From assembly GCA_964362125.1 (NCBI GenBank), contig CAYICS010000002.1, forward strand, positions 9,302 to 73,301: a stretch of 64,000 nucleotides of DNA. Direction: 5' to 3'. Position 1 is the first letter of the stretch. Each line of letters opens with the position of its first letter. Origin of the DNA: an uncultured Candidatus Saccharibacteria bacterium (lineage in GTDB: Bacteria; Patescibacteriota; Minisyncoccia; UBA6257; UBA11618). The translations under genes and the position numbers were made by a program. The notes beneath the pieces were generated by a model, which made no database searches, was not told the DNA's origin, and saw nothing but the letters and a program-made list of their open reading frames with translations. This document shows, piece by piece, positions 23,592 to 56,837 of this stretch.

Positions 23592-24033
23592 CGGAGTAGA
23601 AATCAAGAAACTGAATATCATTCCTGATGAACGGGGAGCGATTTATCATATGCTCCGCCGCGATGATCCCCTTTTTGAACAATTCGGCGAAATTTATTTT
23701 TCCAAGGTTTATCCCGGAGTAATTAAGGGTTGGCATATCCATAAAGAGATGACTTTAAATTACGCCGTCATTTCAGGAATGATTAAGCTGGTTTTGTTTG
23801 ATGATCGGGAAGGCAGTGCCACCCGGGGCAATCTGATGGAGATATTTATGGGCGAAGATAATTATCTTTTGGTGAAAATCCCTAAGCTGATTTGGAACGG
23901 CTTTAAGGGTATTGGCAGTAAGCCAGCTATTGTTGCCAATTGTGCCACTCTACCGCACATTAAAGAAGAAATCGGGCGCCTTGATCCTTTTCACAATCAT
24001 ATTCCTTATAAATGGGATTTAATCAATGAATAA
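23551..24033 (+). CDS. RmlC-like cupin sugar epimerase or ketoisomerase
   Basis: 160 aa with a GWHIHK motif typical of dTDP-4-dehydrorhamnose-3,5-epimerase-like and FdtA-like cupins. Confidence 0.55.
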   Translation: MNGTVFGIKGQKIDGVEIKKLNIIPDERGAIYHMLRRDDPLFEQFGEIYFSKVYPGVIKGWHIHKEMTLNYAVISGMIKLVLFDDREGSATRGNLMEIFMGEDNYLLVKIPKLIWNGFKGIGSKPAIVANCATLPHIKEEIGRLDPFHNHIPYKWDLINE

Positions 24034-26269
24034 TCTTAAAGATTTTTATAAGGGCAAAAAAGTGCTGGTGACTGGTCAGAGCGGTTTTAACGGCGCCTGG
24101 CTGGCTTATGTTCTCTGGCGCTGGGGAGCGCAGGTGACGGCCGTTTCTTTAGCGCCCAAAACCCAACCCAATCTTTTTGATATTTTTGGTTTAAGAGAGA
24201 AAATTACCAACTACTTTATTGATCTCCGCGATTTTCAGCATTTAAAAAATATTATCGCCAATCTTCAACCAGAACTGGTTTTTCATTTAGCCGCCCAAGC
24301 CATTGTTTTAAAAAGCTATGATGAGCCGATGGAAACTTATATCAGCAATACTCTAGGCACAGTCAATATCTTGGAAGCAATCCGGACCGCCGGCTGTGTT
24401 CGCTCGGGAATCATTGTCACCACTGATAAAGTTTATGAAAATAAAGAAGATTCTCACGCTTTCCAGGAACCGGATAAGTTAGGCGGCGACGATCCTTACA
24501 GCGCCAGCAAAGCCGCCGCCGACATTATTGCTAATTCTTATATTCGTTCTTTCCATCTGCCTCTGGCTGTTTGCCGCTCCGGCAATATTTTAGGCGGCGG
24601 CGATTGGGCAGAGTATAGGTTATTGCCGGATATTTTCAGAGCTATTTACAGCGGTAGTAATCCGGTGATTATCCGTAACCCGGAGGCGGTTCGTCCCTGG
24701 CAGTATATTCTAGAGCCGGTCTCCGGATATTTATTTTTAGCTAAAAAAATTTTTGAGGGAGAAAGTAATCTGGCCGGCGCCTGGAATTTCGGGCCGGATC
24801 AGGAAAATTCTGCGGCGGTTGAGCCAGTGGTTCAAAAAACTATTAAGTTGATCGGCACCGGGCAGTATCAAGTGGTGCCAACCGATGATAAACCCGAGAA
24901 GAAATTATTAAGATTGGATAACACCAAGGCCAAAACAGTTTTGGGCTGGAAGCCCCGCTTAAATCTGGATGATACTTTAAAATGGACAGTTGATTGGTAC
25001 CGGCAATATTATACTAATCCTTCAGGTATTATCAGTTTAACTGACGAGCAGATTGATAAATTTTTCGGTGAGAGCGCCAGCCGGCGGGTAACTTACGCTC
25101 TGGCGGTTCATGGTGATGAAGAATTGGCGGCTGTGATTGACGTTCTTAGTCGCCATAAAACCATTATGGGAGAAAAAGTTAAGCTGTTGGAAAATAAAGT
25201 AGCCGGCCTTTTTGCCAAAAAACATGGGATTGCTGTTAATTCCGGTTCCTCAGCCAATTTTTTGGCCTTAGAGATTATTGATTTACCGCCGGGCAGTGAA
25301 GTTATTACCCCCATTATGACTTTTGCCACAACCGTGGCGCCCCTAGTTCAAAAAGGATTGCGGCCGGTTTTTACCGATGTTATTGAAGGTAATTATCAGA
25401 TTGATGTTAATCAGGTAGAGTCACTCATCAGCGATAAAACCCGGGCGCTGATGATCCCTTCTCTTTTAGGCAATATCCCGGATTACCGCCAACTGCGGGA
25501 AATTGCCCGACGTTATAATCTTTTTTTGATTGAAGATTCTTGTGACACTTTGGGAGCAAAATTAGACGGCGCCGCCACTGGTCTTTACTCTGATATTTCC
25601 ACTACCAGTTTCTATGGTTCTCATATTATTACTGCCGCTGGCGGGGGCGGAATGATTTGTGTCAATAATGACGACTGGGCAAGGCAGTGCCGGGTGTTGC
25701 GGGGTTGGGGCCGGTCTTCGGCGGCTGATGAGAGCGAAAGTATTGAAGCGCGCTTTCAGCAAGAACTTGATAATGAGCCCTATGATGCTAAATTTATTTT
25801 TGAACGCCTTGGCTATAATTTCTTGCCCAGTGAAATAGGCGCGGCTTTTGGTTTAGCCCAGTTGGAGAAGTTAGATAGTTTTATCGCCATCCGGCGCCGC
25901 AATTTCCAAGAGCTAAAATTATTTTTCTTAAATTATCAGGATTTATTTATTCTGCCGGAACAAAATTCCCGGGCCGAAACCGCCTGGCTGGCTTTTCCTT
26001 TAACTATTAAAGAAGGGGCGCCTTTCCGACGCAAAGATTTACAGATTTATCTCGAGAGGCGGGGCATCCAGACCAGAACTAATTTTGCCGGCAATCTCTT
26101 GCGTCACCCCGGCTTTAAAGGCATACCCTGCCGCACCCGGGCCGAAGGTTATCCAGCGGCAGATAATATTTTCCGCAATTCTTTTCTGATTGGCTGTCAC
26201 CACGGTCTGACCAGTGAGGACTTGGCTTATCTTAAGCAAAGTTTTACTGATTTCTTTAAATCCATATGA
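24026..26269 (+). CDS. Single-ORF fusion of CDP-glucose 4,6-dehydratase (RfbG/DdhB-like, N-terminal) and PMP-dependent CDP-4-keto-6-deoxyglucose 3-dehydrase (RfbH/DdhC/E1-like, C-terminal)
   Basis: Residues 1 to about 350 read KKVLVTGQSGFNGAWL, YSASK and RPWQYILEP, which are collinear with RfbG. Residues from about 355 to 747 are DegT/DnrJ/EryC1-family (GSSANFLAL, DSCDTLG, TTSFYGSHIITAAGGGGM). The frame is continuous throughout. Confidence 0.8.
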   Translation: MNNLKDFYKGKKVLVTGQSGFNGAWLAYVLWRWGAQVTAVSLAPKTQPNLFDIFGLREKITNYFIDLRDFQHLKNIIANLQPELVFHLAAQAIVLKSYDEPMETYISNTLGTVNILEAIRTAGCVRSGIIVTTDKVYENKEDSHAFQEPDKLGGDDPYSASKAAADIIANSYIRSFHLPLAVCRSGNILGGGDWAEYRLLPDIFRAIYSGSNPVIIRNPEAVRPWQYILEPVSGYLFLAKKIFEGESNLAGAWNFGPDQENSAAVEPVVQKTIKLIGTGQYQVVPTDDKPEKKLLRLDNTKAKTVLGWKPRLNLDDTLKWTVDWYRQYYTNPSGIISLTDEQIDKFFGESASRRVTYALAVHGDEELAAVIDVLSRHKTIMGEKVKLLENKVAGLFAKKHGIAVNSGSSANFLALEIIDLPPGSEVITPIMTFATTVAPLVQKGLRPVFTDVIEGNYQIDVNQVESLISDKTRALMIPSLLGNIPDYRQLREIARRYNLFLIEDSCDTLGAKLDGAATGLYSDISTTSFYGSHIITAAGGGGMICVNNDDWARQCRVLRGWGRSSAADESESIEARFQQELDNEPYDAKFIFERLGYNFLPSEIGAAFGLAQLEKLDSFIAIRRRNFQELKLFFLNYQDLFILPEQNSRAETAWLAFPLTIKEGAPFRRKDLQIYLERRGIQTRTNFAGNLLRHPGFKGIPCRTRAEGYPAADNIFRNSFLIGCHHGLTSEDLAYLKQSFTDFFKSI

Positions 26270-37384: not shown

Positions 37385-38350
37385 ATGAAGATTTTATATC
37401 TTTCTCATCCAACGCCGTTTAATTTTGATCTGATAGCCGGCTTAAAAAAACTGGGAGTAGAGATTTTTTATTTTAATGATGAATCAGGTTGGTTTATAAA
37501 TTCATTAAGGAGTCGTTTTTCTTTTGTCAGGCAGCTTAATAAAAAATTGCTGAACAAAAGATTAATCAAGACCTGCCGCCAATGGCAGCCCGATGTTTTC
37601 TTTACCACCAAAGGGATTACTATTAACCCGGAAACTCTGGCTCAAATCAAATCTTTAGGAATTAAGACCGTCAACTGGAATCTGGAGAATATTTATCACA
37701 AAGACTATTATCAGTGGTTTTTAAAAACAGCTGCTGCTTATAATCTGTTTATCAAGATGGATTCTTCCCGGGCAGATTCGATCAAGACCGGTTATCTGGC
37801 AGTGGCCATTAAACCAGAAAGATACCAGACACCGGATTTAACCGAGGATGAAAAAAGAAAATATCAATGTGATATTTTTTTCGCCGGCAGTTTTGATAAA
37901 GACCGGGAAGAATTGCTGTTATCAATAAAAGATTACGATTTGAAAGTTTTTGGTGATAAAAAATGGCAGGAGTCGCCATTAAAAGATTTTTATCACGGCG
38001 GCCCCCTGCCGTTAGAAGAATTTATTAAGGCCTGCTCCTGCGCTAAAATTTGTATCAATATTCAGCTTAAACCTGATACCTGCCGCGGGCTTAATCTTCG
38101 CGATTTTGAAGTGCCGGCCACCAGTAGTTTTTTACTCTCCCATTATCGGCCGGATATGGAAGAATTATTTGTTATTGGTAAAGAAATTGAAGTTTTTCGA
38201 AATGAGCAGGAGTTAAAAGAAAAAATTAAATTTTATCTGACAAATGACGATTTAAGAAAAAAAATAGCCGCCGCCGGCCAAGAACGGGTTTTGCGGAATC
38301 ACACTCTGGAGCGGCGGGCTAAGGAGCTTTTAACTTTGATAAATTCTTAA
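37385..38350 (+). CDS. CgeB-like / Glyco_trans_1_2 family protein
   Basis: 321 aa. The C-terminal LRKKIAAAGQERVLRNHTLERRAKEL block is typical of CgeB-family glycosyltransferase-like proteins. Confidence 0.4.
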   Translation: MKILYLSHPTPFNFDLIAGLKKLGVEIFYFNDESGWFINSLRSRFSFVRQLNKKLLNKRLIKTCRQWQPDVFFTTKGITINPETLAQIKSLGIKTVNWNLENIYHKDYYQWFLKTAAAYNLFIKMDSSRADSIKTGYLAVAIKPERYQTPDLTEDEKRKYQCDIFFAGSFDKDREELLLSIKDYDLKVFGDKKWQESPLKDFYHGGPLPLEEFIKACSCAKICINIQLKPDTCRGLNLRDFEVPATSSFLLSHYRPDMEELFVIGKEIEVFRNEQELKEKIKFYLTNDDLRKKIAAAGQERVLRNHTLERRAKELLTLINS

Positions 38351-39044
38351 AGCGGATTTCCGCCAATTGCCATTCTTCCGGGGTATTGATGTCAACTTCG
38401 TAAATAGGATTAGTGACATAAAGCTCAACTTTTTGGCCGTAGAGGCGGGAGGGTTTTTCGTAAAGATTTTTTGGTTTGAGAAGATAGATTATTTCATTGC
38501 GGGCATAGCATTTTTCCGGAAAGTCCTGTCGGCGGTTAATGATTTTTTTTAGAGGGATTCCGCCGAATAACGACACCTTTCCTTTTTTGTCTTGTGTAAG
38601 AGTCCAATAGGGCGTGTGATTAGCCGGGGTTTCGTTGACAGCCACCACCGAATCGCATCCTGTTTTCTTCATAATTTTAATGGCTTCATCAATATGCCAG
38701 CTTTGACGCAGGGGGTTGGTGCAGAAAAGCAGGGCTAGGGCGTCGGCAGAGTAGCTTTCTTTAGCTTTTAACCATTCGTAGACGTGTTTCATTACCGGCT
38801 CGATACCTATGGTAGCGGTGGCCAGCTCCGGAGGTCTTAAAAACGGCACTTCAGCGCCATAGCGCCGGGCAATTTTGGCAATTTCCGAACTATCAGTAGA
38901 AACAATCACCCGGTCCAGTTTTTTGCTTTTTAGGGCGGATAAAATTGTCCAAGCGATTAGGGGCCTGCCGCAGAAAATCTTGGTGTTCTTTTTTTTCGTT
39001 CGCTCGGAATTCCCCCGAGCTGGAATAACGCCAACTATTTTCAT
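38319..39044 (-). CDS. Acylneuraminate (nonulosonate) cytidylyltransferase, i.e. CMP-NulO synthetase (NeuA/PseF/LegF family)
   Basis: IPARGNSERTKKKNTKIFCGRPLIAWTI gives the CTP_transf_3 signature. The gene is 241 aa. Confidence 0.75.
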   Translation of the reverse strand: MKIVGVIPARGNSERTKKKNTKIFCGRPLIAWTILSALKSKKLDRVIVSTDSSEIAKIARRYGAEVPFLRPPELATATIGIEPVMKHVYEWLKAKESYSADALALLFCTNPLRQSWHIDEAIKIMKKTGCDSVVAVNETPANHTPYWTLTQDKKGKVSLFGGIPLKKIINRRQDFPEKCYARNEIIYLLKPKNLYEKPSRLYGQKVELYVTNPIYEVDINTPEEWQLAEIRFKNLSKLKAP

Positions 39045-39316
39045 TGTTTTTTAGACTTAATTTTCACTAGTGTCACTGTATAAATAGTGACAGCAACAAG
39101 AAAAATACTTTGACCAATAATCAAATAAATATCCTGAACTAATAACATTTTTATCCATAAAATAAAAGTAGCTGCCAATCGGATGATTACTTCCCGCAAA
39201 ACGATATCTTTGGCGGATTTTGTGATGTAGATATGCCACCACTGGGCTAATACACCATAACTTAAAAAGGCCAAAGTGCCCACAGAGAGATAATCAAACA
39301 CTTTCAAGAAATCCAT
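39041..39316 (-). CDS. Small membrane protein with a lipid-A-disaccharide-synthase N-terminal-like (LAB_N) domain
   Basis: 91 aa with 3 TM helices. The QWWHIYITKSAKDI...IIGQSIFLVAV pattern resembles LAB_N. Confidence 0.45.
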   Translation of the reverse strand: MDFLKVFDYLSVGTLAFLSYGVLAQWWHIYITKSAKDIVLREVIIRLAATFILWIKMLLVQDIYLIIGQSIFLVAVTIYTVTLVKIKSKKQ

Positions 39317-39371
39317 TTAATTTGATTAAATATTAACAGAGTTTTTAGCTATTGTCAAAAAAAAATCGACC

Positions 39372-39500
39372 CTACCTTGTGGGCAGGGTCGTGGGGTCAA
39401 TGCCCCGGGCTTCGAGGACCAGGTTGGCAAAGTCGCGCAGGGCGCCGTTGCCGCCGGGTCGGGGTGTCACCCAATGTGCCATTCGTTTGACCACTTCCTC
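39372..39500 (-). pseudogene. Remnant of the C-terminal ~40 codons of a KdsC-family phosphatase
   Basis: The minus strand translates to EEVVKRMAHWVTPRPGGNGALRDFANLVLEARGIDPTTLPTR*, bounded by an in-frame TAA upstream. This is homologous to the C-terminus (SGGNGAFRDFANFILTAWGINPLTLPPQ*) of the 45974-46633 gene. Nucleotide similarity extends into that gene's terminator hairpin. Confidence 0.5.
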
Positions 39501-39636: not shown

Positions 39637-40749
39637 ATGATAGAAAATTTTGAGAAATTAAAGAAAATTAAATTACTGGCCCTTGATTTTGATGGAGTGT
39701 TAACGCCGGCCAAGGTTATTGTTAGCGCCAACGGTGAAGAATCGGTGGTCTGTAGTCATCGCGACGGACAGGGCATAGAGTCAATTCGTAAGGCAGGGGT
39801 GCCGGTGGTTGTTATATCCGGTCAGCGCAGTCTATATGTTGAGAAGCGCTGTAATAAAATGGGCATAGATTTTTTTCAAAATATAAAAGACAAGCCAGCT
39901 TGTTTATTGGCATATCTAAAAGAAAAACATCCGTCCGTTGCCATTGAAGATGTTTGTTTTGTTGGCGATGACGCCAGCGACTTGGCTGTTATGAATATTG
40001 TCGGGGCGCCCATAGCAGTCGCTGATGGGACAGAAGAAGTAAAACAGCGGGCTTTGTTGGTTACTAATCGTAATGGCGGAGAAGGAGCGGTGCGGGAGGT
40101 GTGCGATATTATTATTAAGGCCAAAAGCAGTGATATTGATAATCACGCCTTTCTTAAAATTCTTATTACCGGCACCGGCGAAAGAGCAACAGAGGAAGTG
40201 CGGATGATAGCAAAAAATATTGCCGCTGTCTTTGGAAGAAATGGTGATATTATTTTAACTAACGGCGGCCCCAATGGGGTTCCAGAGGCGGCGGCGACCG
40301 GAGCTAATGAGGCCGGCGGCCATTCAGTCGCCTACACTTTTATGCCCGGCCGAACGACCGAATACACAAAAACCAAAGAAATTAAATCTTTCCCGGATTA
40401 TGAACAACGCAATGCCTATCTTTGTTCAGATTCGGATGTAGCTATTTTTTTCCAGGGGGGCTTGGGCACCGCCACTAAATTTTTTACACTCCTCCATCGT
40501 CTGGTCCATATTAATGGCGAATTGATGAAAAAGGGCTTCCCCTCGCTCCAAAGGCCCAAACTAATGATCGTTCATTCCAGTTTTGCTCCCAATGATTTAA
40601 TAAAATGCCAGGAGTTATTTGGACGCAATTTTAAACCAGAACACTTTGCGGCTGTACATTTCGCCGATACGGCGGAGGAAATTATTAAGATAGTTGATGG
40701 CTGGCGGGGAAAAGACAAAACCTTGACACCGGAGGATTTTTTATTATAG
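39637..40749 (+). CDS. Fusion of a KdsC-family HAD phosphatase (N-terminal) and a LOG/TIGR00730-like Rossmann domain (C-terminal)
   Basis: The N-terminal ~165 aa read LALDFDGVLT, RDGQG and VGDDASDL. The C-terminal ~200 aa read TNGGPNGVPEAAATGANEAGGHSVA and FFQGGLGTATKF, which resemble the LOG GGGxGT(L)EE motif. Confidence 0.6.
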   Translation: MIENFEKLKKIKLLALDFDGVLTPAKVIVSANGEESVVCSHRDGQGIESIRKAGVPVVVISGQRSLYVEKRCNKMGIDFFQNIKDKPACLLAYLKEKHPSVAIEDVCFVGDDASDLAVMNIVGAPIAVADGTEEVKQRALLVTNRNGGEGAVREVCDIIIKAKSSDIDNHAFLKILITGTGERATEEVRMIAKNIAAVFGRNGDIILTNGGPNGVPEAAATGANEAGGHSVAYTFMPGRTTEYTKTKEIKSFPDYEQRNAYLCSDSDVAIFFQGGLGTATKFFTLLHRLVHINGELMKKGFPSLQRPKLMIVHSSFAPNDLIKCQELFGRNFKPEHFAAVHFADTAEEIIKIVDGWRGKDKTLTPEDFLL

Positions 40750-44580: not shown

Positions 44581-45084
44581 ATGATTTCAAAAAAATTAAG
44601 CTTAAAATTAAAGAAAATTAAATTACTAGCCCTTGATTTTGACGGCGTTTTTACCGATGGCAAGGTTTATCTTAATCAAGACGGCATTGAGACTGTGGTT
44701 TGCAGTCGTCGTGACAGTTTGGGCTTGAATCGATTAAAGAAATTAGGCATTAAATTGGCGGTGATCTCCATGGAGCCCAATCCGATTGTGGCTAAAAGAT
44801 GTGAAAAACTTAAAATTGAAATGCTTTATAGTCCTGAAGGAAAAGGCGAGTTGCTTAAGCAATTGGTAAATAGAGAAAAGCTTTCACCTAACGAAGTTGG
44901 TTATATGGGAGACGATCTTAATGATCTTGATTGTTTAAAGTACGCGGGGGCGGCTTTCACTGTGGCTGATGGAGCTTTTCCTTGCTTAAAAACAGCTGAT
45001 TATGTTACCAAAAGAAAATCAGGAGATCATGCCCTTCGTGAAGTATGCGATCTGATTTTAAGAGCTTATGGACAAGAAACATAA
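44581..45084 (+). CDS. KdsC-family (HAD-IIIA) sugar-acid phosphate phosphatase
   Basis: Carries LALDFDGVFTDG, RRDSLG and MGDDLNDL. The first ~45 nt of the coding sequence are near-identical to the 5' end of the 39637 gene. Confidence 0.75.
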   Translation: MISKKLSLKLKKIKLLALDFDGVFTDGKVYLNQDGIETVVCSRRDSLGLNRLKKLGIKLAVISMEPNPIVAKRCEKLKIEMLYSPEGKGELLKQLVNREKLSPNEVGYMGDDLNDLDCLKYAGAAFTVADGAFPCLKTADYVTKRKSGDHALREVCDLILRAYGQET

Positions 45085-45973: not shown

Positions 45974-46633
45974 CTATTGAGGCGGCAGGGTTAAGGGATT
46001 AATCCCCCAGGCTGTCAGGATGAAATTGGCAAAATCGCGGAAGGCGCCGTTGCCGCCGGAACGTTGCGAGACAAAGTCAACGATGCTTCTGATGGCAATA
46101 TCGGCGTTGGCTGGGGCGGCTCTTAAAAGCACCTTTCGTAGAATTTCCACATCTACTAAATCGTCGCCCATATAGGCGCAATCACTAAAAGTCAGGCCAA
46201 CTTCTTTAAGCCACTCCTCGGCTTTGGCAACTTTGCCGCCGCCGTAACTGCCTTCGTAAAGCCGGACAAGCTCCCAGCCGCCATCACCCGGGGCCTTGGA
46301 AGTAGAAGATAATTTGTTCCACTTCTCAACCACATCCCTGATATGCCGGCTGGCCTCGTTTTTTTCAGAGGTGATCAGGCAAACACGGACACCGATGGCT
46401 CGGAGTAAAGAGACGCCTTGGCCATCGTAGTAACTGCGCCTTTTGGATGGACTAAGTGGATCAACGGTATTATCAGTAAAGACCCCATCCACGTCCGAGA
46501 TGACAGCCCGAATGATTCCGGCTTTATTCCAGACCGCCTCAGAAGATTCGCCTGTCACCATATCTATGAAATGGTCTCTCGGTATGATCATTTTATTCTC
46601 CTTATTCTCCTCTTCAACAGTTTCGTTTGTCAA
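45974..46633 (-). CDS. KdsC-family phosphatase with an N-terminal extension
   Basis: Carries VISDVDGVFTD, YDGQG, MGDDLVD and GGNGAFRDF. Confidence 0.7.
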   Translation of the reverse strand: MTNETVEEENKENKMIIPRDHFIDMVTGESSEAVWNKAGIIRAVISDVDGVFTDNTVDPLSPSKRRSYYDGQGVSLLRAIGVRVCLITSEKNEASRHIRDVVEKWNKLSSTSKAPGDGGWELVRLYEGSYGGGKVAKAEEWLKEVGLTFSDCAYMGDDLVDVEILRKVLLRAAPANADIAIRSIVDFVSQRSGGNGAFRDFANFILTAWGINPLTLPPQ

Positions 46634-49482: not shown

Positions 49483-50541
49483 TTGACACCGCTCCTTTTT
49501 TTGTTCATATTAAAAGCTATTATGCCGCGGCGCTTTTTCCCCCAAAAATTTTTATCCCGCTTGGTCAGGTTTATTAAGAATCAGCCGCCTCTTGCCACAA
49601 AGGATGTTTTTATTGGCGGCCTGCCTGTTGGCCGGGGCCGCCCCTGCTTTTTTGCGGCAGAAATCGGGATTAACCACAATGGCAGTTTGGAAATTGCCAA
49701 GAAGCTTATTGATGCCGCCGCCTTTGCCGGCGCCCAAGCTGTTAAATTTCAAAAACGGACCGTTGCTAAAGTTTACTCTCCTGAAGAACTGGCCAAGCCG
49801 CGGGTTGTGGATAGGGCGGTTTTGGAAAATGCCGTTAAGCGCGGCGTCCTTTCCCGGGAAGCGGTTGAGCGGCTTCAACGCTCTGACTTTAAAGACAGCA
49901 CCAATGGCGATCTAAAATGGGCTTTGGAATTCACTGAATCTGAATATCGGGAATTATTTGCTTACGCTAAAGAGAGGGGCCTGCTTTGTTTTGCTTCGCC
50001 GTGGGATTTAGACAGTATTGATTTTTTGGAAAAACTTAATCCGCCCTGCCATAAGGTTGCTTCAGCTATGATTACTAATCATTCTCTTTTACGGAAAATC
50101 AGGACTACTGGCCGGCCCATCGTTCTTTCCACTGGTATGAGCACAATGGATGAAATAAAAGCGGCTATTAATATCGCTGGTCTGGATAATCTGATTATTC
50201 TTCATACTGTTTCCACTTATCCTTCAAAAGAAGAAGAGCTTAATTTGCAGTTAATTACCCATTTGCGCGGGCTTTTCCCAACTGTGCCTATTGGCTACAG
50301 CGGCCATGAAAAAACTCTTGCGCCATCATTAATGGCAGTCAGCTTAGGGGCGCACTTGATTGAACGTCATTTGACACTGGACAAAACAATGTTCGGCACT
50401 GATCAGTCGGCTAGCTTGGAGCCGCAGGAATTTGCCCAACTTATTCACGATGTGCGGCTGATAGAACAGGCGGCCGGCGGCCGGGTGAAGCAAGTGATGT
50501 CTTCAGAGGTGCCGATTAGAGAAAAACTACGGAAAGTTTAA
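49483..50541 (+). CDS. NeuB/PseI/LegI-family nonulosonate (or nonulosonate-9-phosphate) synthase
   Basis: Carries PCFFAAEIGINHNGSLEIAKKLIDAAAFAGAQAVKFQKR, the NeuB signature. The C-terminus looks short for a full SAF domain. The start could be 49483 or the ATG at 49522. Confidence 0.7.
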   Translation: MTPLLFLFILKAIMPRRFFPQKFLSRLVRFIKNQPPLATKDVFIGGLPVGRGRPCFFAAEIGINHNGSLEIAKKLIDAAAFAGAQAVKFQKRTVAKVYSPEELAKPRVVDRAVLENAVKRGVLSREAVERLQRSDFKDSTNGDLKWALEFTESEYRELFAYAKERGLLCFASPWDLDSIDFLEKLNPPCHKVASAMITNHSLLRKIRTTGRPIVLSTGMSTMDEIKAAINIAGLDNLIILHTVSTYPSKEEELNLQLITHLRGLFPTVPIGYSGHEKTLAPSLMAVSLGAHLIERHLTLDKTMFGTDQSASLEPQEFAQLIHDVRLIEQAAGGRVKQVMSSEVPIREKLRKV

Positions 50542-55277: not shown

Positions 55278-56837
55278 ATGCTGGAGTTTTTTGATGAAAA
55301 AGCTATTGGAGAATTAAAAAATAAAAAGCAGACGGCGCCGTCAGGTTTTCATTATGGTTTTACTGAAAATATTTTTAAAGAAGATGTTTATCAGAAATTA
55401 ACTAACACTTTTCCTGATATCAAGAGCTTTAAGCTGGTTGATAAAATGTCCGGCGGCGGCCACAAACGTTTTTATGTCGGGCCGGATTACTATAGCGGCA
55501 AGGACTGGGGCTGTATTTGTCATATGAAAAACCTGCCGGAAATCTGGCAGAAAGTTCTTTTAGAATCAGCCGCGCCGGAATTTATTGAAATGTTGAGTAC
55601 AGCCACCGGCATAAAATTTAATTCTCTTTGCAACTTTGGTTTTGCCTATGGCAATGAGGGTTGTGTTCAGGAGCCGCATATTGATGGCGCCGCCCGGCCG
55701 GATGACCCATCGCCAGTCCATTCAACCATCGCCTGCCTGCTTTATCTAAACCAAAAGCCCGACGGTTTTACCGGCACTTGTATCTATGCTCCAGACCGGA
55801 AAACAATTATCTTCCAAGTGCCCAATCTGCGTAACTCTATGTCATTTTTTAAACAACACCCTTCTGCCTGGCATGGTTTTCCTCAAGTGCCAAAAGGCGA
55901 AAGTCGACGAATAATCAGTTTATCTTACAGTCAGGAAGCCGCCCCAATTGCCTTAAAAACATTTAAAGAACATAATCCTTTGCCTTATCTTGGTGACCGC
56001 CGGATACTTCAATGCGGCAGCTGCGGCATTGTTTTTTTATCACCCGAAATATCTATGAAAGATTCGGAGAGTTATTACCGTGAAGGCGATTATTGGCGGG
56101 ATAAATTAAACGATCCTCTGCAAAGAGAAATGTTGAGTCGTAACGCCCGGGCGATGCTTTCTTTAATTACCTTACATAAAAAACCTGATAAATCTGTTAA
56201 GTTACTGGACATCGGCTCTCACGAAGGAACTTTTGTGGAAGAAGCCCTTAAATTTGGTTATCAAGCCCAAGGCATTGAGCCTAATAAGAGAATCGCCGCC
56301 GAGGCCCGGGCCAGAGGCCTGCCCATTACTGAAGGCGCTATTGAAAGTTTAGCCGGTGAAGAAAAATTTGATATTATCACCCTCTTTCACGTTCTGGAAC
56401 ATCTGCCCGATCCCCAATTGGCTCTTGAAAAAATAAAAAATCACTTGAAGACAGACGGGATTTTAGCGCTGGAGATTCCCAATATCGAAAGTTATTTGGC
56501 TAAGCGCCACGGACTTTCCTGGAAATTTATTGCTCTGGAACATCTTTGGTATTTTTCGCCGCTGACCTTAAAGCATCTTTTAAAAGAAGCGGGATTTGAA
56601 ATAACTTTTTCCTTAAAAAGAAACGGTGAAATTCCTTACTTGAGCTTGGGGGATATCCGGCAGTATTTCCGGCCTAATCCCAATTATTATAAAGACCGCT
56701 TTAAGATGAAAGTTTCTGCTCCGGCCGCCGGGCTGTTAAAAATAAGATTTAAATTATTAAAAAGATTTTTAGCTGCTATTATTTATATCTTAGGCCGGGC
56801 TGATCATTTTTTTGTAATCGCTAAAAAAATATTGTGA
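55278..56837 (+). CDS. Fusion of a 2OG-Fe(II)-oxygenase-like domain (N-terminal) and a Zn-ribbon class I SAM methyltransferase (C-terminal)
   Basis: The N-terminal ~230 aa read EPHIDGA (HxD) and SAWHGF (distal His). The C-terminal part reads CGSCG, LLDIGSHEGTF and LFHVLEHLPDP. Confidence 0.55.
   Translation: MLEFFDEKAIGELKNKKQTAPSGFHYGFTENIFKEDVYQKLTNTFPDIKSFKLVDKMSGGGHKRFYVGPDYYSGKDWGCICHMKNLPEIWQKVLLESAAPEFIEMLSTATGIKFNSLCNFGFAYGNEGCVQEPHIDGAARPDDPSPVHSTIACLLYLNQKPDGFTGTCIYAPDRKTIIFQVPNLRNSMSFFKQHPSAWHGFPQVPKGESRRIISLSYSQEAAPIALKTFKEHNPLPYLGDRRILQCGSCGIVFLSPEISMKDSESYYREGDYWRDKLNDPLQREMLSRNARAMLSLITLHKKPDKSVKLLDIGSHEGTFVEEALKFGYQAQGIEPNKRIAAEARARGLPITEGAIESLAGEEKFDIITLFHVLEHLPDPQLALEKIKNHLKTDGILALEIPNIESYLAKRHGLSWKFIALEHLWYFSPLTLKHLLKEAGFEITFSLKRNGEIPYLSLGDIRQYFRPNPNYYKDRFKMKVSAPAAGLLKIRFKLLKRFLAAIIYILGRADHFFVIAKKIL

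Follow-up and report, generated by a model that had tools for sequence, protein, structure and literature searches.

The Fusion Gene and Its Setting

We analysed a 64,000-nucleotide stretch of DNA, hereafter called the window, from an uncultured Candidatus Saccharibacteria bacterium (assembly GCA_964362125.1, contig CAYICS010000002.1, positions 9,302 to 73,301). The gene considered here lies on the plus strand at 39637-40749 of the window and encodes a predicted KdsC/YrbI-type HAD phosphatase joined to a Rossmann domain of the SLOG superfamily. Its neighbours are all glycan-biosynthesis genes. The original prediction, made from the sequence alone, had proposed such a fusion and had named a missed stop codon or frameshift between two genes as a possible source of error. 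We found a single open reading frame (ORF) of 370 codons plus a stop codon, with an ATG start, no internal stop codon and nothing else that splits the two halves. The continuity of the ORF, together with recurrence of the architecture in 12 protein clusters and two named metagenome-assembled genomes (MAGs), rules out an artefact of that type. A protein identical to that of the fusion gene (P0001) was present on other contigs from a sample of like type, apparently the 0.1-µm fraction of Hainich groundwater.

A divergent intergenic region of 320 bp precedes the fusion gene, and promoter-like hexamers are found close upstream of the gene. The same region contains a strong terminator-like hairpin on the minus strand (39367-39391; a 10-bp stem with seven GC pairs and a T9 tail), which is positioned upstream of the minus-strand genes and not downstream of one. 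An AlphaFold2 model of the whole protein, generated from a 12-sequence alignment, had a predicted local distance difference test (pLDDT) value of 88.7 and contained two confident domains. No chain covering both domains was returned from the PDB in the fold search.

A Predicted KdsC-Type Phosphatase Domain

The N-terminal domain comprises residues 5-164 (39649-40128, plus strand) and was assigned from TIGR01670, its fold and its motifs. TIGR01670 matched with 127.8 bits (cutoff 106.95, E = 3e-37), pairing residues 11-163 with positions 1-152 of the 154 in the profile. HAD motifs I-IV are intact: the DFDG nucleophile motif containing D17 and D19 (39685-39693), S61, K86, and the GDDxxD motif formed by G110, D111, D112 and D115. 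These catalytic residues are invariant among the 12 homologues except for S61, which is kept in at least 90% of them. The modelled domain superposed on solved KdsC structures (4um5, 2r8x, 3hyc and 2p9j) over 163 residues with a root-mean-square deviation (rmsd) of 1.2 Å, 38% identity and target-normalised TM scores of 0.88-0.93, and it has the capless (type C0) KdsC fold. As the original prediction had held, the N-terminal part is, by its profile match, motifs and modelled fold, a complete and apparently catalytically intact HAD phosphatase of the capless KdsC/YrbI type.

In a rough neighbour-joining tree the KdsC domains of all the fusions formed a single clade, whose nearest plain relative was the KdsC protein of an Azambacteria gene cassette (47% identity). 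Position 63 directly follows HAD motif II. All members of the SLOG-fusion clade and their Azambacteria sister have Gln there; the other KdsC paralogues of the cluster and KdsC fusions to CTP_transf_3 or SIS domains have Glu, and the two solved KdsC-type sequences in the alignment, 7t35 and 2p9j, have Arg. This position may be a marker of substrate specificity. The region around it was recorded as window positions 39685-39830, given as residues 41-64 of the fusion.

A Linker in Place of the KdsC Tail

KdsC enzymes act on ulosonate phosphates and are homotetramers in which each active site is completed by a neighbouring subunit. In the fusion, the phosphatase domain is followed by a linker at residues 164-173 (40126-40155, plus strand), delimited by low pLDDT, variable sequence and alignment to Escherichia coli KdsC. 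Residues 166-170 had pLDDT values below 50 and are predicted to be disordered. Across all 12 clusters the linker is 9-13 residues long and variable in sequence. E. coli KdsC aligned with residues 6-163 of the fusion and then continued for about 11 residues, such that the linker corresponds in both length and position to the flexible tail at the C terminus of stand-alone KdsC. This tail is reported to contact adjacent monomers and to aid product release (Biswas 2009, via PMC12184663). The structure 3i6b, a YrbI protein from which the tail was deleted, was among the fold matches. Since the linker coincides with the tail in length and position, the SLOG domain should sit near the subunit interface that completes the KdsC active sites, a placement that motivates the cap-like or regulatory role considered below.

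A SLOG Domain Closest to Molybdenum Cofactor Carriers

The C-terminal domain spans residues 174-357 (40156-40707, plus strand) and was recognised from PF18306, its structural model, Foldseek and profile searches. PF18306 ('SLOG cluster 4') matched residues 174-282 with 50.4-51.9 bits (cutoff 26.3, E = 2e-13), a match that spans only positions 3-110 of the 151 in the profile. The match to the LOG family PF03641 ('Lysine_decarbox', cutoff 27) was marginal, with 26.8 bits for the whole protein and 28.5 bits for the domain alone. Both TIGR00730 (26.7-28.5 bits, cutoff 96.35) and TIGR00725 (41.8-42.5 bits, cutoff 106.9) remained below their cutoffs.

When modelled alone, the domain had a pLDDT of 93.7 and a predicted TM score (pTM) of 0.90. 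Foldseek returned 101 PDB chains at E ≤ 0.001, and the top 50 listed were all SLOG-fold proteins, namely molybdenum cofactor (Moco) carrier protein (MCP), LOG, PpnN and DprA. The top match was the Rippkaea MCP 6y01 (E = 3e-10, target-normalised TM 0.80), which was also the best match by sequence profile (36.8 bits), and further fold matches included many LOG enzymes, TM1055 (1rcu), the Chlamydomonas MCP (2iz5) and PpnN. The original prediction had allowed that this domain might prove to be a Rossmann fold of an unrelated kind, for example DprA or SIS. We rejected that assignment on the grounds that MCP and LOG proteins rank at the top, DprA occurs only from rank 48 down and SIS was not among the matches listed. 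The profile scores and the model instead indicate a SLOG/LOG-fold domain that is nearer to the branch of Moco carriers, TIGR00725 and 'SLOG cluster 4' than to the TIGR00730 LOG enzymes. The earlier description of the domain as LOG/TIGR00730-like was thus correct as to a LOG-like fold of the SLOG superfamily but not as to membership of TIGR00730.

The two motifs quoted in that description, TNGGPNGVPEAAATGANEAGG and QGGLGT, are both present. The glycine-rich ligand loops ITGTG, TNGGxNG and GGxG[T/S] are invariant among the fusions. The C-terminal domain is conserved about as well as the phosphatase, with a mean pairwise identity of 50% vs 54%; in the 12-fusion alignment 30 of 183 positions are invariant in the C-terminal domain and 32 of 160 in the KdsC domain.

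An Altered LOG Active Site

LOG enzymes bind phosphate through the GxGT loop and the residue that follows strand 1, and the ribose hydroxyls through Arg99. Arg99 is also one half of the proposed catalytic pair, the other half being Glu122, which ends the PGGxGTxxE motif (PMC4979012). The original prediction had singled out conservation of this Arg/Glu pair as a point to be checked. Profile alignment to LOG 5zbj, MCP 6y01 and 1rcu placed the corresponding block of the fusion, E256-x-R258-N259 through Q273-G-G-L-G-T-A-T-K281, at 40402-40479 on the plus strand. The Arg half of the pair is kept: R258 (codon 40408-40410) aligned with the catalytic, ribose-binding Arg of MHxRK and is invariant in the fusions. 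The Glu half is not: K281 (codon 40477-40479) occupies the Glu position, and the Pro that begins the motif is Gln, giving QGGLGTATK. E256, R258, N259, G274, G275, G277 and K281 are all invariant in 12 of 12 fusions. By comparison, MCP (6y01) and TM1055 (1rcu) retain Glu at the K281 position, as do 131 of 148 related domains, drawn from the 139 nearest relatives outside the family; Lys occurs in two of the 148. Because all 12 fusions have Lys where most related domains have Glu, this replacement is a fixed, family-specific trait.

The change extends to the rest of the pocket. Alignment matched the adenine/prenyl pocket positions His97, Lys100 and Trp129 of LOG with E256, N259 and R288 of the fusion, and the domain has gained an invariant set of basic or polar residues, E256, N259, K281, R288, H291, N293, K308 and H336. 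E256, N259 and R288, with H291, N293, K308 and H336, would form a polar and mostly basic surface instead of a hydrophobic pocket. LOG-type hydrolysis of an N-glycosidic bond appears unlikely, because the catalytic Glu is replaced by an invariant Lys, and a bona fide LOG hydrolase was rejected on motif grounds. The domain likely binds a phosphorylated, polar or anionic ligand.

Occurrence of the Fusion

A search of 5.8 billion protein clusters identified the same architecture, HAD followed by PF18306, in 12 clusters from independent samples (354-394 aa, 43-100% identical). The divergences of the KdsC and SLOG halves were correlated (r = 0.63). The recurrence in 12 clusters, the short linker of near-constant length, the single KdsC clade and this correlated divergence lead us to conclude that the fusion is ancient and virtually certain to be real. 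Recurrence in homologues, which had been posed as a check, thus bore out the original prediction.

We also searched 1.84 billion representative proteins exhaustively with an HMMER profile of the C-terminal domain alone. Four strong matches were obtained (240-284 bits), comprising three KdsC fusions and one fragment of a fusion, and no stand-alone relative was found among these representatives. The next match, at 61 bits, was an ordinary LOG protein. A word-indexed search for stand-alone relatives returned only a 172-aa fragment of another fusion. Weak matches of 369-406 aa that had been considered as further KdsC-SLOG fusions proved to be tandem LOG, SIR2-SLOG or Ribul_P_3_epim-LOG proteins. 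As every strong match was a fusion or a fragment of one, the subfamily exists only as a KdsC fusion. It is small and sharply separated, with at least 240 bits within it and at most 61 bits to everything else among the representatives searched.

Among 185,579 species genomes the fusion was present in two, both of them Patescibacteria (Candidatus Yanofskybacteria and a Patescibacteria MAG), and the Patescibacteria homologue is named merely 'HAD-IIIA family hydrolase' at NCBI. The fusion gene is very rare and comes from ultra-small groundwater bacteria of the candidate phyla radiation (CPR), an origin with which the Hainich sample agrees.

The Surrounding Gene Cluster

The fusion gene lies in a cluster of the NeuB ulosonic-acid type, in agreement with the nonulosonate setting originally proposed. 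The NeuB-family ulosonic acid synthase gene (49483-50541, plus strand) matched PF03102 with 239 bits and was below the cutoffs of the NeuB and PseI equivalog models. The divergent neighbour of the fusion encodes a CMP-sugar-type cytidylyltransferase (CTP_transf_3; 38319-39044, minus strand) that matched PF02348 with 74 bits and a PseF-like model with 146.6 bits, the latter below the equivalog cutoff. The cytidylyltransferase co-occurs with the fusion in loci L003, L006 and L014, as judged by similarity to the sequence of the window gene, and in L001, as judged by Pfam annotation. Its start is overlapped by 4 bp by a minus-strand ORF (39041-39316) encoding a hydrophobic protein of 91 aa with about three predicted membrane helices. 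No Pfam match and no homologue in the other loci was found for this ORF, whose size and shape we take to be reminiscent of SemiSWEET/PQ-loop sugar transporters. Directly downstream of the fusion, after a 72-bp gap, is a gene for an EamA/DMT-family membrane transporter (PF00892; 40822-41823, plus strand). EamA homologues adjoin the fusion in L003 and L014, and an EamA gene is present in L006 too. Other genes of the window cluster encode a cupin, methyltransferases and two short-chain dehydrogenases/reductases (SDRs).

The window contains two further KdsC genes. One, at 44581-45084 on the plus strand, encodes a plain KdsC paralogue of 167 aa (TIGR01670 116.7 bits) with intact catalytic motifs and belongs to a separate KdsC lineage. 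The other, at 45974-46633 on the minus strand, encodes a divergent KdsC-like paralogue of about 219 aa with intact motifs. Its scores of 87.7 bits with the model for KDN-9-P phosphatase and of 66.5 bits with TIGR01670 both fall short of the cutoffs, and its homologue in L006 is 66% identical. In the neighbour-joining tree, which is rough, the three catalytically intact KdsC genes of the window represented three different lineages. The Yanofskybacteria locus L006 (10140-13351) contains the fusion and three further KdsC-type ORFs. The presence of several KdsC paralogues suggests that more than one intermediate is phosphorylated, or that the KdsC fold is put to non-canonical use.

The best-conserved gene of the cassette encodes a B12-binding radical SAM enzyme (PF04055 and PF02310; 46718-48472, minus strand). 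Its relatives number more than 778. They come from Patescibacteria and, at 57% identity, from a single Nanoarchaeota MAG, with 54-71% identity among the best 120; identity to the window gene was 49-51% in fusion loci and 56-71% in cassettes that have no fusion. The fusion and the radical SAM gene are immediate neighbours in L004, L014 and L015 and no more than one or two genes apart in L001 and L003. In the window 6 kb separates them, and no radical SAM gene was found near the fusion in L005 or L006. Two radical SAM homologues, P0358 and P0378 (913-919 aa), contain PF14528, a homing endonuclease domain of the LAGLIDADG type, which suggests an intein within the enzyme.

Seven other fusion loci share this neighbourhood of NeuB, CTP_transf_3, radical SAM and SDR-type genes, and usually add AP_endonuc_2, an aldo-keto reductase (AKR) and a class-III or DegT aminotransferase. 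We compared them with three cassettes that have no fusion, from Azambacteria, Parcubacteria and Nanoarchaeota (L011, L012 and L013). Each of the three contains NeuB, SDR and CTP_transf_3 genes and a plain KdsC of 169-191 aa, and no SLOG domain, AKR or aminotransferase was found in any of them. The SLOG domain is thus an add-on and not a core catalytic step, since the usual phosphatase of the cassette is a plain KdsC, and the same observation rules it out as a requirement of the cassette. Instead, the gene content indicates that it marks a sub-variant. The AKR and aminotransferase genes were present in six of the six informative fusion loci besides the window (L001, L003, L005, L006, L014 and L015) and in none of the three cassettes without the fusion. 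AP_endonuc_2 did not discriminate, as it also occurs in L011. The window departs from the other fusion loci in having no AKR, AP_endonuc_2 or class-III aminotransferase gene within its 64 kb. The combination of radical SAM, NeuB, KdsC, SDR and CTP_transf_3 genes looks like an undescribed pathway for a modified ulosonic acid, and transfer of the cassette between CPR and DPANN organisms is possible.

A DUF386/YhcH-family gene lies inside the fusion-bearing cassette of L014 (13846-14316, minus strand). This family is linked to sialic-acid metabolism, and the link, if right, would favour a sialic-acid-like product.

Proposed Function of the Fusion

We propose that the protein acts in a surface-glycan pathway of Patescibacteria (CPR). 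In this model the KdsC domain would dephosphorylate the phosphorylated eight- or nine-carbon ulosonic acid made by the NeuB-type synthase of the cluster, or a close intermediate, and the CMP-type cytidylyltransferase would then activate the dephosphorylated product; both steps are suggested by the gene context. The SLOG domain would not hydrolyse an N-glycosidic bond but would hold a phosphorylated, polar or anionic ligand, candidates being the phospho-ulosonate itself, CMP or CTP, and the CMP-sugar product. Carried on a tether of about 10 residues that replaces the KdsC tail, it would serve as a built-in cap-like specificity or regulatory module. A phosphatase role for the KdsC domain is probable, and a ligand-binding, regulatory role for the SLOG domain is put forward tentatively. 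The chain as a whole, in which a KdsC-type phosphatase that is active in a NeuB/CMP-sugar pathway has exchanged its tail for a non-hydrolytic module that binds a phosphorylated ligand, could as well be wrong as right. The original prediction had suggested coupling of dephosphorylation to a nucleotide-processing or regulatory step. The first half of that suggestion is weakened by K281, which makes LOG-type hydrolysis unlikely, and the regulatory half would be the better option.

Several observations weigh against this model. The KdsC equivalog model for Kdo-8-P phosphatase (NF007019) scored 132 bits, under its cutoff of 208, and the KDN-9-P phosphatase equivalog model (NF058599) scored 80 bits, under its cutoff of 180; both cutoffs being missed, no assignment of the KdsC domain was made at the substrate level. 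With two other intact KdsC paralogues in the window, the fusion may act on another phosphorylated intermediate. The full-length AlphaFold2 model had a pTM of 0.57 and left the orientation of the domains undefined, and hence any cap-like or allosteric geometry. The role of the KdsC tail is taken from a secondary citation (PMC12184663). The conclusion that the SLOG domain is non-hydrolytic derives from one residue change and analogy to LOG, and catalysis by a different set, made up of E256, R258 and K281, is conceivable.

The last of these points leads to the strongest alternative, an enzymatically active C-terminal domain whose LOG site has been re-wired (E256/R258/K281 plus R288/H291). It would couple a nucleotide or nucleotide-sugar step to dephosphorylation, either by supplying the pathway with a sugar phosphate split off from a nucleotide or by hydrolysing CMP or a CMP-sugar. 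The domain, with its 30 invariant positions, is unusually rich in invariant polar residues around the canonical pocket, and the invariant E256 stands at the LOG His position, as though acid and base had swapped sides. Moreover, LOG-fold enzymes cleave nucleotides (PMC4979012) and PpnN is among the fold matches. However, the LOG Glu that most related domains retain is Lys in every fusion, the domain is most like the non-enzymatic Moco carriers in sequence and fold, cassettes that share the core genes manage without a SLOG domain, and no pathway enzyme is obviously missing. We consider this alternative possible but unlikely. A bolder version would make the domain a new enzyme or substrate-capturing module (Glu256/Arg258/Lys281) that links nucleotide metabolism to ulosonic-acid synthesis in the metabolically reduced CPR bacteria and hands its product directly to the KdsC domain. 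It could take a sugar phosphate out of scavenged nucleotides or use the CMP-activated sugar as its substrate, with the nucleotide-linked species carried into or out of the cell by the neighbouring EamA/DMT transporter. If true, this would be an unprecedented LOG-fold reaction and a new entry route to nonulosonate-type glycans, but we regard it as quite unlikely.

Loss of the catalytic Glu would also fit a degenerate LOG fold that binds no ligand and serves as a mere structural or oligomerisation scaffold. KdsC enzymes themselves are tetramers, and in animal CMP-sialic acid synthetase a KdsC-like domain has such a role in assembly. In addition, the related MCP and LOG proteins occur as obligate dimers or tetramers (PMC7470044). 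Drift would be expected of such a scaffold, whereas all three of the glycine loops that bind phosphate, the Arg and a large number of polar residues in the pocket are invariant at 43-50% identity, which makes this explanation very unlikely. Rated lower again, as improbable, is a Moco-carrier-like holder of a cofactor for the neighbouring B12-dependent radical SAM enzyme, for example of a phosphorylated cofactor or a part of one. The nearest structure and the best profile match are Moco carrier proteins, and the fusion adjoins the radical SAM gene in three loci and lies one or two genes away in two others. Against this, relatives of the radical SAM enzyme number more than 778, and no SLOG domain occurs in the three cassettes that we inspected; there is a 6-kb gap in the window and no radical SAM gene nearby in L005 and L006; and obligatory fusion to KdsC would be left without a reason. 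Finally, an assembly or frameshift artefact joining two genes, or an anti-phage sensor of the kind for which SLOG domains are common in defence systems (PMC6459960), can be dismissed, given the in-frame fusion in 12 independent clusters and two named MAGs, a C-terminal domain that never occurs alone, no PADLOC defence-system match at E ≤ 0.01 and the glycan-biosynthesis neighbourhood, the last two of which rule out a defence-system SLOG.

Comparison with Known Systems

The fusion resembles KdsC/YrbI of E. coli (2r8e/3hyc) in fold, catalytic motifs, 38% identity, an rmsd of 1.2 Å over 163 residues and a score above the TIGR01670 cutoff. It differs in scoring below the KdsC equivalog cutoff (132 vs 208), in having Gln after motif II where 7t35 and 2p9j have Arg, in replacing the free tail with a linker and a 185-aa domain, and in belonging to a NeuB-type instead of a KdsA-type cluster. 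The other KdsC fusions that we encountered, CTP_transf_3-KdsC (annotated as N-acylneuraminate cytidylyltransferase) and SIS-KdsC, likewise join KdsC to a Rossmann-like domain in the same sugar-acid pathway, and their KdsC halves are 46-48% identical to that of the SLOG fusion. In those more common proteins, however, KdsC occupies the C-terminal position (residues ~232-390) and is joined to a known enzyme of the pathway, whereas the SLOG fusion has KdsC at the N terminus and a SLOG domain as its partner, and is accompanied by a separate cytidylyltransferase gene. The architecture is therefore non-standard, as had been claimed.

LOG phosphoribohydrolases (PF03641/TIGR00730; 5zbl, 2a33) share with the C-terminal domain the fold (query-normalised TM 0.65-0.70), the glycine loops, GGxGT and the Arg. 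They differ in having PGGxGTxxE where the fusion has QGGLGTATK and in the TIGR00730 score (26.7 vs the 96.35 cutoff), and the pocket of the fusion would be polar and charged. The best profile and fold matches were to Moco carriers (Rippkaea 6y01, Chlamydomonas 2iz5) and TM1055 (1rcu), which have a similar GxG loop after strand 1. MCP is non-enzymatic and binds anions at a site that matches the LOG active site (PMC7470044). These proteins keep the Glu and stand alone, whereas the domain of the fusion is always fused, is below the TIGR00725 cutoff and has no molybdoenzyme context, none being found among about 40 neighbouring genes scanned. A precedent for the proposed arrangement is ThsA of the Thoeris system, in which a SLOG ligand sensor binds 3'cADPR and controls a fused catalytic domain (PMC6459960). 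Unlike such defence sensors, the fusion lies in a glycan-biosynthesis cluster, its fused enzyme is a phosphatase of sugar metabolism and it had no PADLOC match.

Both domains come from known, well-studied superfamilies; what is new is their combination, their order and the SLOG subfamily with Lys in place of Glu. Our literature search found no paper combining KdsC with LOG or SLOG, and none on a CPR cassette of NeuB, KdsC, radical SAM and CMP-transferase genes. Should the SLOG domain serve as a ligand sensor or cap, this would be the first known control of a sugar-phosphate phosphatase by a SLOG module, and the principle of a SLOG sensor of a fused enzyme would extend from immunity (Thoeris ThsA) to glycan biosynthesis. 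The practical significance is limited until the ligand or product is identified, with function inferred and scope narrow. The analysis also flags an undescribed and widespread surface-sugar cassette of Patescibacteria, with NeuB, up to three KdsC paralogues, a B12/radical SAM enzyme and a CMP-transferase, whose product may matter for surface decoration of Patescibacteria episymbionts.

Other Composite Genes in the Window

Two other composite ORFs were observed on the plus strand. One of 747 aa (24026-26269) joins an NAD-dependent sugar dehydratase/epimerase domain to a DegT-type aminotransferase domain. The other, of 519 aa (55278-56837), has a weak N-terminal match to a 2-oxoglutarate-Fe(II) oxygenase, under the Pfam cutoff, and a C-terminal class-I methyltransferase domain.

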